Virus record (IMG/VR): IMGVR_UViG_3300018486_000129
Coordinates: 1-5,863 of that record
Length of the DNA stretch: 5,863 bases
Source of the DNA: a virus
Taxonomy: Duplodnaviria; Heunggongvirae; Uroviricota; Caudoviricetes
Strand: one strand, 5' to 3'
The notes below the pieces were generated by a model. The model ran no database searches and was not told the origin of the DNA. It was given only the letters and a program-made list of their open reading frames with translations. Positions 750 to 5,863 of the stretch are shown piece by piece (positions within the stretch are counted from its first letter, which is position 1; each line of letters begins with the position of its first letter). The position numbers were made by a program, and so were the translations under genes.

Positions 750-778
750 ACCATAGGAAATTTTTTCCCACCTGTAAA
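750..778 (-). promoter_or_regulatory. Candidate sigma70 promoter for the 89-aa/66-aa operon
   Basis: Minus strand reads TTTACA (778..773), 17-nt spacer, TATGGT (755..750), about 45 nt upstream of ATG 699, inside an AT-rich intergenic stretch. Hexamer match by eye only. Confidence 0.3.
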
Positions 779-794
779 GCACTTTTTATATAAA

Positions 795-808
795 TATATA
801 ATTATATA
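795..808. repeat. Perfect 14-bp AT-only palindrome TATATAATTATATA
   Basis: Read directly; it is its own reverse complement. Lies just after the methyltransferase stop and 16 bp upstream of the candidate -35. A related 12-bp copy is at 1930..1941. Confidence 0.6.
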
Positions 809-811
809 ATT

Positions 812-1399
812 CTATGCCACTTGCCAGAGAGCATCATGCAACTGGATACCTCCATTGCACTGGTTGCCCCAGCCATGCCAACCATCAGGTAAATCACCGC
901 GAGCAAACAGCTCAATACGAGGAACATCACCTAACAGCCTTACCAGCTTGTCACGAACCACATCAGGCTTCCGAGAATGCTCCAGACGAGGCGATGTAAA
1001 CGACTGAATGATCCCCGCATCAAGGCGGGTCGGCAATTTGCCTTTTACCGCAAACAAGCAATCTTCACTGTTTGCACGAGTCATATGCCCCATCCCCATC
1101 ACCAGCTTATCTGGTTGTCGGCTACCACATTTGTTCCATGTGAAGCCCTTCATGGTCATAAGCCTGAATCCCCATGCTTTCACCACCAGCAACGCTTCTT
1201 CTGGCTGAGTCGGAACCCACCACATGGCCAACAAACACGATTCAGGATTAGCAAGCTGCCAGACAGGAATACGAGCAATATCCTCAGCTTTCATCGTTGG
1301 ATACTTAAAACCAGCTCCACGATTCCCATCCTTACACTTATCTTTGTATTCCCAGGGGGGATCTGCATAAATCAGATTAAACAATGCAATTGCCTCCAT
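812..1399 (-). CDS. DNA N6-adenine methyltransferase, MT-A70-like (orphan, no restriction partner in window)
   Basis: 195-aa ORF with N-terminal ADPPWEY (DPPW catalytic motif of N6-adenine methyltransferases) and overall resemblance to phage Dam/MT-A70-like enzymes. GGAGG about 10 nt upstream of ATG 1399. Confidence 0.8.
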   Translation of the reverse strand: MEAIALFNLIYADPPWEYKDKCKDGNRGAGFKYPTMKAEDIARIPVWQLANPESCLLAMWWVPTQPEEALLVVKAWGFRLMTMKGFTWNKCGSRQPDKLVMGMGHMTRANSEDCLFAVKGKLPTRLDAGIIQSFTSPRLEHSRKPDVVRDKLVRLLGDVPRIELFARGDLPDGWHGWGNQCNGGIQLHDALWQVA

Positions 1400-1642
1400 G
1401 TTAGTTGTGCCTCCGGCGCTTATCTCCGGCAGTCATAACGCTGGCCAGCTCTACAGCAAACACAACGAAAAGGGCACTAACCAGACTGATTAATGCCCTT
1501 GCCTGTTGTGTGCCGGATATCGCCCGACAACGCTGTTTTGGTAACACGGCTACAGTTCCGTGCCGCTCCAGCTTTTACCCCTTTGCGGATAACAGGCCCT
1601 GCCTGTAACTTAGCCCCACGTTCGCCCGAAATGCGCACCAGG

Positions 1643-1706: not shown

Positions 1707-1782
1707 TGGTGGCCCCTACCGGATTTGAACCGATGACCGTGCGATTATGAGTCGCCTGCTCTAACCACTGAGCTAAGGGGCC
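1707..1782 (-). tRNA. tRNA with CAU anticodon, most like tRNA-Ile2 (lysidine, AUA-decoding)
   Basis: Minus strand reads GGCCCCTTAGCTCAGTGGTTAGAGCAGGCGACTCATAATCGCACGGTCATCGGTTCAAATCCGGTAGGGGCCACCA. 7-bp acceptor stem, D-arm GCTC/GAGC, anticodon loop CTCATAA, T-arm ATCGG/CCGGT with TTCAAAT loop, encoded CCA. Acceptor stem GGCCCCU and anticodon arm match host ileX-type tRNA as recalled from memory; elongator tRNA-Met is not excluded. Confidence 0.9.
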
Positions 1783-2354: not shown

Positions 2355-2893
2355 ACCACCACTCGCTCTTTCATCCAGCCGTAGACAAACGACTCATTAG
2401 CCTCGCGCTTCTCCGCCAACTCCAGATAGCGTTCGCCCTGCGTACAGTTCAGCGACGTCAGCATCACCCGTTCGCCGTCTTTTCCCCGATTCCCAAGATA
2501 AGCACGCAGCGCATTAATGGTACGTGGACCGATTCGTCCGTCTGCATCCAAATCGGGATACAGCTTCCCACGCAGGTTGAACACATTCAGCCAGCGTTGA
2601 AGCATTTTTGACGCCACTGTTGGCCCCATGTTGACGCCCGTGTCGCACAGTTCTGCGGCAATATCCGGCGACAGAGTTGCTATCTGGTCAAAACGTGGGC
2701 CGTACCAGTAATCAGCCTCAAGGATTTCCAGAGCCTGTTCGCGAGTTAAATCGCGCATATCGCCACGGTATCCATGAGCACGGGCAGTGTTCTGAGTAAT
2801 GCCCCACTTTGTTGGGCCTCCCTTGTCGTCAGGGTGATCCACATAGCCGCCCTCTTTTCCAAGAATGCTGTTAAAAATCTCATCTTTGGTCAT
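2351..2893 (-). CDS. Endolysin, GH108-like N-terminal domain with PG_binding_3-like C-terminal domain
   Basis: 180-aa ORF. N-terminus ILGKEGGYVDHPDDKGGPTKWGIT matches the GH108 signature and the C-terminal half resembles the PG_binding_3 peptidoglycan-binding domain. No N-terminal hydrophobic SAR segment. Start overlaps the upstream gene by 14 nt. Confidence 0.85.
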   Translation of the reverse strand: MTKDEIFNSILGKEGGYVDHPDDKGGPTKWGITQNTARAHGYRGDMRDLTREQALEILEADYWYGPRFDQIATLSPDIAAELCDTGVNMGPTVASKMLQRWLNVFNLRGKLYPDLDADGRIGPRTINALRAYLGNRGKDGERVMLTSLNCTQGERYLELAEKREANESFVYGWMKERVVV

Positions 2894-3176
2894 GATTAAA
2901 CCCTAATGCGTCAACTATCCGCGCCAGATTGCCCCTGAAATACAGAACAACGATGCAGATAATCAGATTTCCAATAACCACCAGCCAGTGGGATTCTTGA
3001 TAAAGACCGAACACATAACGGAAGGGAACATTGGCGTATACAATGACGTAGATATAAGCCAGAAAGGAAACAAATGGACGATGCCTGGAGTCTTTCCGTC
3101 GATAAAGCATCAGCGCAATTACTATTACTGTGCAAAGCACCGCATTAATCAGTGCTGACGGGTCACTGCTTACCAT
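2880..3176 (-). CDS. Small three-helix membrane protein, possible second holin or antiholin
   Basis: Three hydrophobic helices in about 98 aa. Start chosen at ATG 3176 (MVSSDPSALI...) because GGAGGGGG lies 5-6 nt upstream; the ORF-track start at 3212 has no such RBS. Confidence 0.55.
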   Translation of the reverse strand: MVSSDPSALINAVLCTVIVIALMLYRRKDSRHRPFVSFLAYIYVIVYANVPFRYVFGLYQESHWLVVIGNLIICIVVLYFRGNLARIVDALGFNHDQR

Positions 3177-3558
3177 TTGAACCCCCTCCACGTAAGCGGG
3201 AAAGCATTCCAAAGATGCTACCGAGATCCTGGCTGTTTACGAACGTGAGGATTTTAATTGTCAATGCAGCCACAATAACCGCACCAAGCGCATCCAGAGG
3301 ACGATCGTTGTAGCTGGTCCATTTGGCAAGAAATGAGCCAACTAACGGCGCTCCAATCACTCCAACAATGAACGATGTAAAGAAATAGCCAATCAGCTTG
3401 AGACGGCTAATATTCACCGCTGTAGCAACATAGAAAACAGCGCCAGCAAATGCCCCGAATACAACGCCGTAATCAATACCAGTTGCAATACCAAAAACGC
3501 TGGCACCCATCAGGCCACCAGCAGCAACGGCCGTACCGGAAATTGGTTCTGCTGACAT
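3163..3558 (-). CDS. Putative holin (131 aa, about four transmembrane segments)
   Basis: Highly hydrophobic Gly/Ala-rich helices with a short charged C-terminal tail. First gene of the lysis cassette. RBS GAGGA 5 nt upstream of ATG 3558. Confidence 0.65.
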   Translation of the reverse strand: MSAEPISGTAVAAGGLMGASVFGIATGIDYGVVFGAFAGAVFYVATAVNISRLKLIGYFFTSFIVGVIGAPLVGSFLAKWTSYNDRPLDALGAVIVAALTIKILTFVNSQDLGSIFGMLSRLRGGGSNGKQ

Positions 3559-3571
3559 TGAAATCCTCGTT

Positions 3572-3604
3572 AAAAAAAAAGCCCCGCCGAAAAAGGCAGG
3601 GCTT
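3572..3604 (-). terminator. Rho-independent terminator directly upstream of the holin RBS (tR'-like)
   Basis: Minus-strand RNA AAGCCCUGCC-UUUUUC-GGCGGGGCUU followed by nine U (plus-strand A-run 3572..3580). Stem has one U.G wobble that would be a C.A mismatch on the plus strand. Confidence 0.65.
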
Positions 3605-3937
3605 CATAAAGCAACAAATTACGCGGTAATCGCTTAACGCAGTTTTACTACGTTAAATGAAACACTACACCCAGTTACCACCTAAAACAAGGCTTCCCCA
3701 TAAAAAAACCTTCATTCTGTGGTTAACTGATCAATAAAAAAACAATACTCAACTTTTTACCAACCGAACATCCCGACCAGGACTTCCATAATATTCGCCG
3801 ATATGCCACTGCTTAAGTTGAGTAATCTTCTCCAACTTAACGCCCATAGAGTCCAGTTTCTGCCATGTTTTCGGTTGTATGTGCTTCATTACCCGCTCTG
3901 AATATCTGAATACTGCTCGTAAGCGCATGGCTTCTCA
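3605..3937 (-). promoter_or_regulatory. Non-coding leader upstream of the lysis cassette; candidate late promoter and short terminated leader RNA
   Basis: About 335 bp with no ORF of 60 aa or more on the minus strand, AT-rich in places, ending in the terminator. No confident -35/-10 pair could be assigned by eye. Confidence 0.35.
3813..3840. repeat. Inverted repeat TTAAGTTG-N12-CAACTTAA in the leader
   Basis: Perfect 8-bp arms at 3813..3820 and 3833..3840 separated by 12 bp. No adjacent U-run. Confidence 0.4.
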
Positions 3938-4129
3938 CTACAGCTTATATAAGTGGTTTTTCCAGCGGTTTTGCGCCGCGCTGCGCTTATCTTTGACTCC
4001 CTCTCTGGCAATTCCAAAAAATGAGAACAACACCACACGACGATTGCTAACTCTCAACCACTGGCTGGGATAGCAAAGCCTGTATACTCGCGAAATAATC
4101 ATCCTGGCTTTACGATTGTTGGTTGCCAT
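3938..4129 (-). CDS. Small basic hypothetical protein (63 aa)
   Basis: Strong RBS AGGAG 6 nt upstream of ATG 4129, which lies 1 nt after the upstream TGA stop. Arg/Lys-rich. No family recognised; a plus-strand ORF overlaps it, so coding status is uncertain. Confidence 0.4.
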   Translation of the reverse strand: MATNNRKARMIISRVYRLCYPSQWLRVSNRRVVLFSFFGIAREGVKDKRSAAQNRWKNHLYKL

Positions 4130-4130
4130 A

Positions 4131-4802
4131 TCACTCTCCTTTTATGCGAATGCCAGCGGCGCGCTCGGCTTCACTTTGTTCCCAAAACCACTTATGAAGC
4201 TCCATGAGCTTTTCGTCAATCGGTGCATATTTGCGATTAAAGTAGGCCTGAGCATCTTTCTCAGATTCGTCCGGCAATTCGCCTGGGCCAAACAGTGTGT
4301 TATAAATCCATGCCAGTCCGCTCTTAGCGTCGCCAGTTGCCTGCCATTCGATAATCGCAGCCTGCATGACAAGAATGTTTTTCCCGATTAATAGGTCCAG
4401 TTCTTTGAACCGGTTGCGGATGTATGCATTCTCGCTTTGTAATTTTGCGTTGCGCTTCTCTGCGGCTTCCAGCTCAACACGCAGCTTCCCTACCGTTAGC
4501 GCAATATCCTCGTTCTCCTGGTCACGGCTTTTGATGTATTGCAGGTTTCTTTCCCGTTCATCCAGCAGTGCCTGCACTACTTCAGGGTTGAAAGCTGCGA
4601 TATAACGAGCGTTGTTCTCTGCGTTTTTCTGTTCGTCGAATCCAGGCCAGTCGACAATATCTCCGTGATGATTATCTCCTGGTGTGTGCACAGCGTACGT
4701 GCCGTGTTTGCCCGGCGAAATAAATGCGACCCATTCGCCCTGTGTTGCCTGTTTTGCTATCTCACGTAGCGCCTGATAGTTAATTGCTGTGCTGTTAGTC
4801 AT
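4131..4802 (-). CDS. Ead/Ea22-like family protein (about 223 aa)
   Basis: Start set at ATG 4802 (MTNSTAINYQALREIAKQATQGEWVAF...), which has GGAGG 6 nt upstream and matches the conserved Ead/Ea22-like N-terminal motif as recalled from memory. The ORF-track start at 4847 lies inside the upstream gene. Central coiled-coil-like region. Confidence 0.6.
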   Translation of the reverse strand: MTNSTAINYQALREIAKQATQGEWVAFISPGKHGTYAVHTPGDNHHGDIVDWPGFDEQKNAENNARYIAAFNPEVVQALLDERERNLQYIKSRDQENEDIALTVGKLRVELEAAEKRNAKLQSENAYIRNRFKELDLLIGKNILVMQAAIIEWQATGDAKSGLAWIYNTLFGPGELPDESEKDAQAYFNRKYAPIDEKLMELHKWFWEQSEAERAAGIRIKGE

Positions 4803-5139
4803 TCCAGGCCTCCAGCTCGTTCTGAATCTCCTCGTCAACCTCGTCATTGGTGGCGTCTTCGTTCAGATGGTCGCGCGCCTCTTTGAGATACTGTTCACGG
4901 CGTTCGTGGTACCAGGCTGAGAACTCCGGCGACCATCCTCGATTAGCCCCCTGAAAATCTACCATCGCATTATCCTCGGCCATACGCTCGACCATGCAAT
5001 CCGCGGTGTTCAGTGCAACCTCACGGATGTACCCCCGCAGGTCGCGCTTACGCCAATACGGGCTATATTTTGAGTCGCAGCGGCCTTTAAATTCGACGGT
5101 CCAGCGACGGATGCAGCGTGCGTTAAGTGATTTGCTCAT
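4795..5139 (-). CDS. Hypothetical protein (114 aa), basic Cys-containing N-terminus and acidic C-terminal tail
   Basis: RBS AGGAAG 7 nt upstream of ATG 5139. Stop overlaps the Ea22-like start by 8 nt. No family recognised. Confidence 0.55.
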   Translation of the reverse strand: MSKSLNARCIRRWTVEFKGRCDSKYSPYWRKRDLRGYIREVALNTADCMVERMAEDNAMVDFQGANRGWSPEFSAWYHERREQYLKEARDHLNEDATNDEVDEEIQNELEAWND

Positions 5140-5141
5140 AG

Positions 5142-5810
5142 TTATGCTTCCTGAATACGCTTAAACTCAATTACCCATACCCACGGGTTAGATAGCCAGT
5201 TCTCTTGCCCGTAAATACCGCGCCAGATATCACCAAAGCCAACGCGATAAACAGCTTCCGGCGGTGTAATCTTGTACGTCGCCGGAGATGCGCCTTCCGC
5301 TTTAGCATCTGCCTCGCTCATGTCATGCAGCCGTTCCACACGCACGTCGGTAATTTCCAACAGAATGCGTGATGCCCATCGCGGCATGTGAATTGATGGA
5401 CGCCACCCACCATCAAACTTTTCATTCACAGTGTGAGGTTTCCAGTCGGCATCATCGGGTATCGACCACAAGCCGTAATCACCAGGCTTTTGCTCACAAC
5501 TGGCCCGATAAATCCTTGCTGCGTTCTTCTCATCGCCACGACAAAGGTTGTCGTTCCAGTCCACACTGCAACCATCCTCATTGCCTAATATCGCCCACGC
5601 CTCGCGGACCCATATGCGATCACCAACGTTACCGAACGGGCATAAACCATGTTCCGGTGCATCCATAACGTGGGTATAGACACCATTGCGTTTCTTTGTC
5701 GGTTTACGGATAACCAGGCAGTTATCGGCCCTGACATTTTTTACAGGTCGGCGAGTCTGCGTTTTCCTTCCTTCGAGGATGGCCCGGACCATCTCATCGT
5801 TAAAAATCAT
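5142..5810 (-). CDS. ASCH-domain (PUA-like fold) protein, about 222 aa
   Basis: Start set at ATG 5810 (MIFNDEMVRAILEGRKTQTRRPV...) because the ORF-track start at 5837 is a GTG whose first codons contain the likely RBS. N-terminal GRKTQTRR...GDRIWVRE and C-terminal VWVIEFKRI resemble the ASCH signature (compare E. coli YqfB, from memory). Confidence 0.65.
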   Translation of the reverse strand: MIFNDEMVRAILEGRKTQTRRPVKNVRADNCLVIRKPTKKRNGVYTHVMDAPEHGLCPFGNVGDRIWVREAWAILGNEDGCSVDWNDNLCRGDEKNAARIYRASCEQKPGDYGLWSIPDDADWKPHTVNEKFDGGWRPSIHMPRWASRILLEITDVRVERLHDMSEADAKAEGASPATYKITPPEAVYRVGFGDIWRGIYGQENWLSNPWVWVIEFKRIQEA

Positions 5811-5863
5811 GCCGCGCTCTTTCACTCTCCCTCCCACGTTTTCAGACTTTCACCACAAAACGG

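Follow-up and report, generated by a model that had tools for sequence, protein, structure and literature searches.

A putative Dam-like orphan MT-A70 family methyltransferase encoded between the lysis and packaging modules of an Escherichia coli phage-plasmid

The stretch of DNA analyzed here (5,863 nucleotides, hereafter the window) derives from a roughly 48-kb E. coli phage-plasmid, for which there is a complete relative of 48.85 kb (NZ_CP070025.1). An open reading frame on the minus strand occupies positions 812-1399 exactly; it runs from an ATG start to a TAG stop codon at 814-812 and encodes an MT-A70 family adenine-N6 methyltransferase of 195 amino acids (aa). The gene order is lysis cassette and tRNA(CAU), then the methyltransferase, then a ParB/terminase module, with the tRNA, spanins and endolysin as the 5′ neighbors. 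With the lysis module of the phage genome on one side and the packaging module on the other, the gene fits by position the label of late-region cargo that it had been given from the sequence. The tRNA gene (1707-1782, minus strand, anticodon CAU) is directly 5′ of a non-coding leader and was called tRNA-Met by ARAGORN, with an Rfam tRNA score of 67 bits; the same gene is called tRNA-Ile by PGAP in NZ_CP070025.1. On the other side, the segment 188-699 (minus strand) contains an 89-aa ORF (430-699), a 66-aa ORF (233-433) and a strong terminator (211-188). These ORFs matched PHROG 6143 and 6621, both of unknown function, and searches of Pfam, NCBIfam and PADLOC returned nothing for either. At a related locus, L011, both keep their synteny with the methyltransferase (70% identity), and the 89-aa ORF is deleted at two others (L001 and L007). 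Close relatives of the methyltransferase in lambdoid prophages are found in the early-left arm beside int, a different position that fits a mobile cargo gene.

The translation start region (1382-1414, minus strand) contains two pairs of GGAGG and start codon. The first GGAGG (1414-1410) is a Shine-Dalgarno sequence 10 nt 5′ of the ATG at 1399-1397, and the second (1397-1393) is 8 nt 5′ of an alternative TTG at 1384-1382. Because the homologues at L011 and L012 begin at the position equivalent to this TTG, the real start may be five codons downstream of the ATG, and a 190-aa version of the protein is also called in the database (P0002). The catalytic motif IV, DPPW, comprises residues 13-16 (D13-P14-P15-W16) and was read from the codons GATCCCCCCTGG at 1363-1352 (minus strand).

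The protein matched the whole Pfam MT-A70 profile (PF05063, 1-172 of 172; 82.9 bits against a cut-off of 23.9 bits, E=3.4e-23), as well as PHROG 359 "DNA methyltransferase" (E=1e-102) and PADLOC "MTase_II" (E=2e-68), while an NCBIfam search of the methyltransferase and its neighbors gave no match. Since 11,419 cluster representatives were similar to it at E<=1e-3, the family assignment is far beyond chance. Among 54 diverse homologues, D13 was invariant and P14 and W16 were at least 90% conserved, and H141, S142, K144, P145, E163, F165, R167, G173, W174 and G178, each of them invariant or at least 90% conserved, were all kept. The signature of the S-adenosylmethionine (SAM) site is complete, consisting of DPPW and the HSxKP, ELFAR and GWxxWGN blocks. 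This is a single-domain, beta-class MT-A70 protein that keeps every family-invariant position. An AlphaFold2 model (mean pLDDT 92.3, pTM 0.90) confidently predicts an MT-A70 fold like that of METTL3 and MTA1, and the top 50 Foldseek matches in the PDB were all METTL3 or MTA1 catalytic subunits (TM 0.68-0.74). The best sequence matches among solved structures were Tetrahymena MTA1 (E=5e-13) and METTL3 (2e-6). The sequence-only reading had proposed an MT-A70-like N6-adenine methyltransferase with a DPPW motif and its own ribosome binding site. All three proposals are upheld, catalysis being predicted, and on alignment the catalytic residues are intact rather than degenerate.

The methyltransferase is under strong purifying selection, with a dN/dS of 0.07-0.13 (about 0.1), and every copy in the phage-plasmid family is full-length and 98-100% identical; relative to L011 and L012 its synonymous sites are saturated. 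The family is neither obscure nor new, being very large and routinely annotated, and near-identical proteins on dozens of E. coli plasmids carry the label "MT-A70 family methyltransferase". The gene is intact but ordinary, an already annotated and routine member of a family in which at least four relatives have been studied.

The methyltransferase is set apart from the lysis operon by operator-like elements and by a structured leader that contains a hairpin resembling a terminator. The conserved leader (1400-1606, minus strand) is 84-92% identical to its counterparts at L011 and L012 despite the saturated synonymous sites of the gene that follows, and a 35-nt indel rules out coding. It holds an extended hairpin at about 1511-1460 (core 1500-1470), 70 nt 5′ of the methyltransferase start and followed by a U-rich tract. 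The leader folds with a z-score of -3.0, and compensatory changes are present in the hairpin, where covariation support is thin as only three sequence variants exist. Rfam gave no convincing match to the leader, only a weak rydB match well below threshold that overlaps it. A 16-mer scan of viral contigs returned only family members and chance matches lacking further similarity, and two leader scans of genome contigs found nothing. A promoter scan detected none directly 5′ of the methyltransferase or the tRNA.

In addition, two AT-rich operator-like elements were identified. One (783-817) overlaps the methyltransferase stop codon and is joined to a predicted sigma-70-like promoter (TTTACA-17-TATGGT, 778-750) that would drive the 89-aa and 66-aa ORFs. 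This roughly 70-nt unit (750-817, minus strand) has near-identical copies in front of two further genes of the complete phage-plasmid (L002), and is 88-92% conserved at L011 and L012. The other element (1905-1951), found by repeat search between the o-spanin gene and the tRNA, has repeats of the TATAATTATA type. The complete phage-plasmid carries seven such copies, scattered among intergenic regions, of which this one is inverted and without the promoter part. The two form the arms of a 32-nt, 88%-complementary inverted repeat that brackets exactly the tRNA and the methyltransferase, as would be expected of a mobile cassette with transposon-like ends. This interpretation was rejected because the arms are two of the seven dispersed copies of the AT-rich operator/promoter element.

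No restriction enzyme or specificity subunit was found in the window (Pfam, NCBIfam and PADLOC searches of the neighbors) or annotated in NZ_CP070025.1, and neither was found next to the lambdoid-prophage relatives. The methyltransferase is an orphan and not part of a type II restriction-modification system, in agreement with the earlier statement that neither partner is adjacent to it. The sequence-only reading had also drawn attention to an ASCH-like protein about 3.7 kb away in the same orientation and had speculated on a functional link. The gene itself was confirmed (5142-5837, minus strand, 3,743 bp from the methyltransferase start), with a sub-threshold Pfam ASCH match (17.2 against 21.2 bits), a match to PHROG 874, homologues named "ASCH domain" proteins by PGAP and in phage records, and 69% identity to P1 PmgT. 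The link found no support, and we judge the gene to lie outside the methyltransferase unit. Five genes and a strong terminator (3605-3578) separate the two, with the ASCH-like gene 5′ of the terminator and the lysis-methyltransferase stretch beyond it. Its identity ranges from 74 to 98% while that of the methyltransferase stays at 98-100%, the phyletic spread of the ASCH-like/P1 PmgT homologues is unlike that of the methyltransferase, and an ASCH-like gene was absent within 10 kb 5′ of the methyltransferase in 70 of 70 lambdoid loci. Neither a fusion nor a conserved operonic linkage of the kind described by Iyer and Aravind was seen between an ASCH gene and the methyltransferase.

The closest studied relative is M.EcoPA8orf6770P, gp5 of the Stx phage phiPA8 (73% identity over 175 aa). 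Together with its partner PNB-2, this enzyme prefers 16S rRNA and 30S subunits and raises spontaneous induction, and it is a 16S rRNA methyltransferase only when PNB-2 is present. The purified catalytic subunit alone showed weak, sequence-unspecific use of SAM, and its activity on DNA in vitro was neither GATC-specific nor otherwise significant. Its authors tie a C-terminal tail of about 27 aa, found in the full-length isoform of Shiga toxin-producing E. coli (STEC), to pairing with PNB-2, and they note a short isoform that occurs without PNB-2. Our protein matches this short isoform. A tblastn search with phiPA8 PNB-2 (143 aa, E<=10) found nothing in either the window or the complete phage-plasmid, and the tail is absent, as similarity stops at residue 181 and is followed by an unrelated 14-aa end. 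Searches of the window and all loci likewise found neither the PerC-like ORF of the 78%-identity group nor the Stx C-terminal tail in the phage-plasmid, and for PNB-1 they returned only a distant ORF6N-domain match, 14 kb away.

An RNA methyltransferase like the phiPA8 holoenzyme, acting on the 16S rRNA of the host or on some other stable RNA, for instance the tRNA encoded nearby, and tuning translation and thereby lysis-lysogeny or induction frequency, is unlikely here. The identity to M.EcoPA8orf6770P, the presence of the RNA enzyme METTL3 among the closest solved folds, and the physical linkage of the gene with a tRNA gene and a structured leader RNA are consistent with it. However, both the source of the RNA preference, PNB-2, and the tail tied to pairing with it are missing from the whole phage-plasmid, the phiPA8 catalytic subunit is weak and non-specific by itself, and the modified rRNA base was never identified by the phiPA8 authors.

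Because PNB-2 and the tail are absent and three relatives methylate GATC when expressed by themselves, the best reading is a Dam-like GATC DNA methyltransferase. M.EcoGV, from a Stx phage of E. coli O104:H4 and called highly similar to the phiPA8 enzyme by the authors of the phiPA8 work, is reported to methylate GATC in vivo. Serratia phage BZS1 p32, to which our protein is 42% identical, rendered the DNA of a dam- host resistant to MboI and sensitive to DpnI, and M.EfaBMDam of Tn1549 is also GATC-specific. For each of the three prokaryotic MT-A70 enzymes whose DNA site has been determined, that site is GATC, methylated when the enzyme is expressed alone. We infer the specificity of the window protein from them by phylogenetic bracketing, in which membership of the GATC subgroup was judged from the sequences of BZS1 p32 and the phiPA8 enzyme. 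The most variable segment of the protein, a loop between the TWxK strand and GMG, is identical to that of the lambdoid type represented by L029 and near-identical to that of phiPA8. There is no target-recognition domain, and recognition of the site would therefore have to come from loops, probably along with homodimerization, as in other beta-class enzymes. The relatives with known activities suggest a narrower function than general anti-restriction.

We consider it somewhat more probable than the alternatives combined that this is a functional, single-domain, beta-class MT-A70 SAM-dependent adenine-N6 methyltransferase, carried as orphan phage-plasmid cargo and acting on phage DNA with Dam-like GATC specificity. 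Its most likely target would be the replicating phage-plasmid genome during lytic growth. Transcription would either accompany or follow that of the lysis genes and the tRNA and would pass through the structured leader. When host Dam is outpaced, packaged DNA would be left fully GATC-methylated, which could shield it both from GATC-targeting restriction (MboI/DpnII type) and from what hemimethylation would entail. GATC methylation might also serve packaging or gene control.

Several observations sit less easily with GATC methylation. The purified phiPA8 enzyme lacked GATC-specific DNA activity in vitro despite being the closest studied relative. M.EcoGV and BZS1 p32 were over-expressed to obtain their results, and off-target methylation is possible under such conditions. 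The hosts are dam+, which makes GATC methylation look redundant. Furthermore, late expression has to contend with the terminator-like hairpin and the lack of a detected promoter for the gene itself. No other 4-bp palindrome is as under-represented in the phage-plasmid as GATC (134 observed, 218 expected), and such scarcity is not what a well-protected genome needs. Enterophages generally avoid GATC. Because of this general avoidance, the under-representation does not discriminate between the hypotheses.

Regulation in the resident state is an alternative to late protection, in which the enzyme would act as an epigenetic regulator of the plasmid prophage, targeting host or phage-plasmid promoters, copy number or induction. 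Copies of the operator/promoter element bracket the gene and also precede early genes, parA and a gene located just 3′ of a toxin-antitoxin pair, and the phiPA8 homologue, which lysogens transcribe near stationary phase, changes induction. We find this improbable, as the promoter scan found none directly 5′ of the gene or tRNA, the upstream copy of the element is reversed and without its promoter part, and host Dam already saturates the site in the resident state if that site is GATC.

We give little credence to a DNA adenine methyltransferase of non-GATC or relaxed specificity that provides broad anti-restriction cover, as do Hia5/Hin1523 or M.EcoGII. A minimal 195-aa enzyme without a target-recognition domain could behave in this way, the sequence-unspecific SAM use of the lone phiPA8 subunit would agree with it, and non-specific phage adenine methyltransferases do exist at late or "mom-like" positions. 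However, the recognition-loop region is of the M.EcoGV/phiPA8 type, and all three site-typed prokaryotic MT-A70 enzymes are GATC-specific. Membership in the non-specific groups was rejected, since Hia5/Hin1523 belong to another family (alpha-class, Dam-like, with DPPY) and M.EcoGII, although beta-class, is not assigned to MT-A70 in the literature examined.

It is quite improbable that the tRNA(CAU), leader and MT-A70 gene form a self-contained "translation-tuning" module, in which the partner-less enzyme would methylate 16S rRNA or the co-transcribed tRNA with the roughly 200-nt leader gating expression as a novel cis-acting regulatory RNA, either an attenuator or an RNase III switch. A silent or decaying passenger without present function, suggested by the terminator-like hairpin and by weak expression of M.EcoGV in its native strain, is very improbable given the strong purifying selection, intact catalytic residues, full-length copies throughout and conserved leader.

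The gene has a modest value as a clean test case for a point on which the literature disagrees: whether enterobacterial prophage MT-A70 enzymes act on GATC DNA, as reported for M.EcoGV and BZS1 p32, or on 16S rRNA, as reported for phiPA8 with PNB-2. This natural short isoform has neither PNB-2 nor the C-terminal tail, and what it does in a dam- host would reveal the activity of the catalytic core alone. If it is GATC-specific, its activity would be invisible in the methylomes of dam+ carriers, which would explain why it has stayed uncharacterized on dozens of clinical E. coli phage-plasmids.

Among known systems, M.EcoPA8orf6770P and M.EcoGV are most alike, as prophage-borne orphan MT-A70 single-domain enzymes with DPPW and the same variable-loop sequence type. 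The Stx-phage enzymes differ in being 208 aa long with a C-terminal tail of about 27-30 aa, and their genes lie in the early-left arm near int, directly after PNB-2, whereas the window gene follows the lysis genes, tRNA and structured leader. The substrates reported for the Stx-phage enzymes conflict, being 16S rRNA with PNB-2 and GATC DNA on over-expression. BZS1 p32 (Serratia phage vB_SspM_BZS1) and M.EfaBMDam share the family, the domain plan and an orphan state on a mobile element. In BZS1 p32 an insertion expands the variable loop by 23 residues and the C-terminus is longer. Unlike the window gene, its gene neighbors integrase/excisionase and follows the gene of a small ANR-family regulator.

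Tetrahymena MTA1/AMT1 (DNA 6mA) and human METTL3 (RNA m6A) share the DPPW catalytic loop and the fold (TM 0.70-0.74), but are only about 23% identical to our protein. They function only in heteromers that also contain a degenerate paralogue (MTA9, METTL14) and proteins that bind DNA or RNA, and neither a paralogue nor such a partner is encoded here. T4 Dam, P1 Dmt and VT2/933W Dam, the classical phage Dam enzymes, probably share its chemistry and site (G-m6A-TC) as well as the logic of an orphan methylase that supplements host Dam, but their sequences fall into unrelated classes (alpha class or PF05869 type). The BZS1 authors regard the likeness to classical Dam as convergence on specificity. 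Hia5/Hin1523 and M.EcoGII are likewise orphan, prophage-borne and anti-restriction in effect, with Hia5-type genes at the late "mom" position, but differ in family, and nothing suggests relaxed specificity here. Functionally, the window enzyme would group with the prokaryotic Dam-like MT-A70 enzymes, for which a single gene product, as shown for BZS1 p32 and M.EfaBMDam in E. coli, is enough to methylate GATC in double-stranded DNA.

The open reading frame that a sequence-only reading had called an orphan MT-A70 methyltransferase was recovered in a six-frame list as an ATG-initiated gene of 195 codons at exactly 812-1399, on the minus strand, which that reading had left unstated. The protein begins with MEAIALFNLIYADPPWEY, and the DPPW motif is present (codons GATCCCCCCTGG at 1363-1352). 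The entire Pfam MT-A70 profile (PF05063) is covered, scoring 82.9 bits where the cut-off is 23.9 bits (E=3.4e-23), and the protein also matches PHROG 359, "DNA methyltransferase" (1e-102), and the PADLOC Type II methyltransferase model (2e-68). Either start would give the gene a ribosome-binding site of its own, with GGAGG 10 nt before ATG1399 and another 8 nt before an alternative start, TTG1384. Because the homologues in two relatives with 75-76%-identical alleles (L011 and L012) begin at the position equivalent to TTG1384, the true N-terminus may be five residues shorter.

In an alignment of the window protein with 53 homologues (37-75% identity), nine columns were invariant and conservation reached at least 90% in 20 more. 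Among them are D13, P14, W16, the W76-G77-F78 block, G102/G104, T107-R108, E112, H141-S142-x-K144-P145, E163-x-F165-x-R167 and G173-W174, and the window protein carries every conserved residue of both classes. Relative to the L011 and L012 alleles, dN/dS is 0.07-0.13, with synonymous sites near saturation. Degeneration of the catalytic residues, which would have counted against the original assignment, is therefore not seen. An AlphaFold2 model from the same alignment had a mean pLDDT of 92.3 and a pTM of 0.90. Its top 50 Foldseek matches in the PDB were all METTL3 or Tetrahymena MTA1 catalytic subunits (TM 0.68-0.74), consistent with the PDB sequence search (MTA1 5e-13, METTL3 2e-6).

The gene is also an intragenic mosaic, with ends like the L011 and L012 alleles and a centre (window 950-1150, residues about 84-150) unlike them, where identity to L011 drops to 46-56%. 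In this central region the loop that varies most, between TWxK and GMG (NKCGSRQPDKLVMGMG), is identical to that of a lambdoid prophage locus type (L029) and near-identical to that of Stx phage phiPA8; it differs from that of the L011 and L012 alleles, which are otherwise the closer ones.

The gene has no restriction partner, in keeping with its description as an orphan: none of its neighbors matches a nuclease, specificity-subunit or defense-system model, and no nuclease or specificity subunit is annotated anywhere across NZ_CP070025.1, a complete 48.85-kb relative. A nuclease partner is likewise absent beside the 75-79%-identical allele in 70 lambdoid prophage loci. There the gene sits elsewhere than in the phage-plasmid, in the order YqaJ exonuclease, RecT, AlpA, PerC-like ORF, methyltransferase, metallophosphatase, integrase, and the MT-A70 genes of phiPA8 and Serratia phage BZS1 are also near int. 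Early-left and post-lysis positions across phage types fit a mobile cargo gene. In lambdoid-type contexts a small, unrelated regulator-like ORF always lies directly before the MT-A70 gene, abutting or overlapping its start. It is PerC-like in the 70 loci (L029, 9697-9996), PNB-2 in phiPA8 (L100, 2851-3282) and an ANR-family protein in BZS1 (L101, 2310-2492); in the phage-plasmid a non-coding leader occupies this slot.

The suggestion that the enzyme protects phage DNA or marks it for regulation needs refining, as studied relatives split between GATC in DNA and 16S rRNA when PNB-2 is present. M.EcoPA8orf6770P of phiPA8, 73% identical to the window protein across 175 aa, was studied by Gong, Chakraborty and Koudelka (PMC10810198). 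When bound 1:1 to PNB-2, which is encoded just upstream, this enzyme favors 16S rRNA or 30S subunits as substrate, and its presence raises spontaneous prophage induction (PMC10810198). The same authors describe a shorter isoform in non-STEC bacteria that lacks the last 27 residues and has no accompanying PNB-2 (PMC10810198). By sequence, the window protein is of this type: its similarity to the phiPA8 enzyme stops at residue 181 and is followed by an unrelated 14-residue tail, and tblastn with phiPA8 PNB-2 found no counterpart in the window or the whole phage-plasmid. Two features that define the rRNA-methylating holoenzyme are thus missing.

On the side of DNA, PMC10810198 records that M.EcoGV, an enzyme highly similar to that of phiPA8, methylates GATC in vivo on over-production, and mentions the REBASE listing of such enzymes as GATC methylases. 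BZS1 p32, another MT-A70 enzyme (42% identity to the window protein), rendered plasmid DNA MboI-resistant and DpnI-sensitive when expressed in dam- E. coli, and M.EfaBMDam of Tn1549 is also GATC-specific. Because the holoenzyme features are absent, three GATC-specific enzymes bracket the window protein phylogenetically, and its variable loop is of the type described, we favor a predicted single-subunit, Dam-like GATC DNA methyltransferase. Against this stands the sole in vitro assay of a closely related enzyme, in which the phiPA8 protein alone made weak, unspecific use of SAM and had no GATC activity (PMC10810198). Since the carriers are dam+, a putative GATC activity would be hidden in ordinary methylomes. 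GATC is the most under-represented 4-bp palindrome in NZ_CP070025.1 (134 observed vs 218 expected, z=-7.5), followed by CTAG and GTAC, and one GATC falls within the DPPW codons of the gene itself.

At 96-98% identity, the window matches circular E. coli plasmids of about 47-50 kb as well as three 49-kb "Yersinia phages". NZ_CP070025.1 encodes RepA, ParA and a RelE/ParE toxin-antitoxin pair along with a full myovirus structural set, and is therefore a phage-plasmid. The Yersinia records (OR545053-OR545055; Yersinia pestis "phages" vB_YpM_39/41/44) are circular with every gene annotated "hypothetical", and their identity to plasmids with repA/parA places them in this family. At least 80% of the window was found in 35 of 5,426 complete E. 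coli genomes, and the tRNA-methyltransferase segment in 57 plasmid records. Read on the minus strand, an ASCH-like ORF (5142-5837), a 114-aa ORF (4795-5139), Ead/Ea22 (4131-4847) and a 59-aa ORF (3749-3928) are followed by a strong terminator (3605-3578), two holins (3163-3558 and 2880-3212), a GH108 endolysin (2351-2893), i- and o-spanins (2076-2354 and 1952-2161), tRNA(CAU) (1707-1782), the methyltransferase, ORFs of 89 aa (430-699) and 66 aa (233-433) and another strong terminator (211-188). Beyond the window, the complete genome continues with three small hypotheticals, ParB-like proteins and terminase. The label "late region" is right by position, since lysis genes precede the methyltransferase and the ParB-like proteins and terminase come after it.

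The 89-aa and 66-aa ORFs (PHROG 6143 and 6621, unknown function) accompany the methyltransferase in the 70%-diverged L011; the 89-aa ORF is cleanly absent from one Yersinia phage record (L001) and from L007, and aligns to just positions 1-88 of a 218-position PHROG profile. About 2.4 kb past the low-coordinate end of the window, at 21219-25650 of NZ_CP070025.1, three ParB_N-domain proteins lie just before terminase. One of these (457 aa) also carries a fused class-I methyltransferase domain (Methyltransf_23), making it a second candidate nucleic-acid methyltransferase. The locus is of the same kind as the "ParB-terminase" loci that Iyer and Aravind connected with the modification of DNA as it is packaged.

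The 231-aa ASCH-like protein has a sub-threshold Pfam ASCH match and is 69% identical to P1 PmgT; P7 Upf86.8 is also homologous, and some homologues carry an ASCH annotation. Its proposed functional link to the methyltransferase is unsupported, as it lies upstream of the terminator at 3605-3578 and hence in a different transcription unit, its identity within the phage-plasmid family ranges from 74% to 98% against a constant 98-100% for the methyltransferase, it was not found within 10 kb upstream of the methyltransferase in 70 of 70 lambdoid loci, and its phage distribution differs (Salinibacter, Pseudomonas, Vibrio and P1/P7, against Vibrio, Stx phages and Klebsiella). P1-like phages share DNA-level similarity with window 3951-5832 as well, evidence of module exchange between two phage-plasmid families.

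A promoter scan detected no sigma-70-like promoter immediately before the methyltransferase or the tRNA. Between them lies a leader of ~200 nt (about 1606-1400, minus strand), non-coding because relatives carry a 35-nt insertion, and 84-92% identical in L011 and L012 despite the saturated synonymous sites of the adjoining gene. Its predicted fold is more stable than those of shuffled controls (z=-3.0), and a long hairpin within it (about 1511-1460) shows compensatory changes and is followed on the 3' side by a U-rich tract; nothing in Rfam matches it convincingly, the overlapping rydB hit being weak and far below threshold. Restricted to this phage-plasmid family (61 plasmid records), the leader could serve as an attenuator, an RNase III target or a small RNA. 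Farther upstream, a GcvB-like match with a GU-rich stretch (3573-3728, minus strand; 36.3 bits against a threshold of 42, E about 1e-6) marks a short structured RNA that ends in the strong terminator immediately before the holin gene. This layout resembles the short pR' transcript and tR' of lambda and suggests, by analogy, the start of a late operon read by antitermination, under which the leader hairpin would be read through late. Alternatively, the stretch could be a phage small RNA.

The tRNA-methyltransferase segment is flanked by AT-rich elements (783-817 and 1905-1951) that form a 32-nt inverted repeat. The element, which is built on a palindrome (TATAATTATA), has seven intergenic copies in the phage-plasmid (2074, 7158, 7918, 11678, 12898, 17645 and 18776 in NZ_CP070025.1), which precede parA, a gene immediately following the toxin-antitoxin pair, DUF3560, the tRNA and the 89-aa ORF. 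A near-identical sigma-70-like promoter (TTTACA-17-TAAGGT/TATGGT) comes after three of the copies, and the copy downstream of the methyltransferase supplies the predicted promoter of the 89-aa and 66-aa ORFs. Together the copies resemble a set of operators for a global regulator. The tRNA itself is very similar to E. coli ileX, the lysidine-modified tRNA-Ile2 that reads AUA. It is called tRNA-Met by ARAGORN and, for the same gene in NZ_CP070025.1, tRNA-Ile by PGAP. It matches P1-like plasmids at 94-95% and has large hairpins on either side (arms 1793-1826/1842-1875 and 1643-1669/1671-1697).

The sequence-only reading thus described an ordinary gene correctly: proteins sharing 99% identity with it already carry the annotation "MT-A70 family methyltransferase", in a family of more than 11,000 clusters at 50% identity. 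The leader and the dispersed operator element, both of narrow spread and thinly supported, are the only features here without prior description. Several members of the MT-A70 family have already been characterized; the window enzyme is an uncharacterized one, a natural partner-less isoform useful for deciding between GATC DNA and rRNA as substrate.
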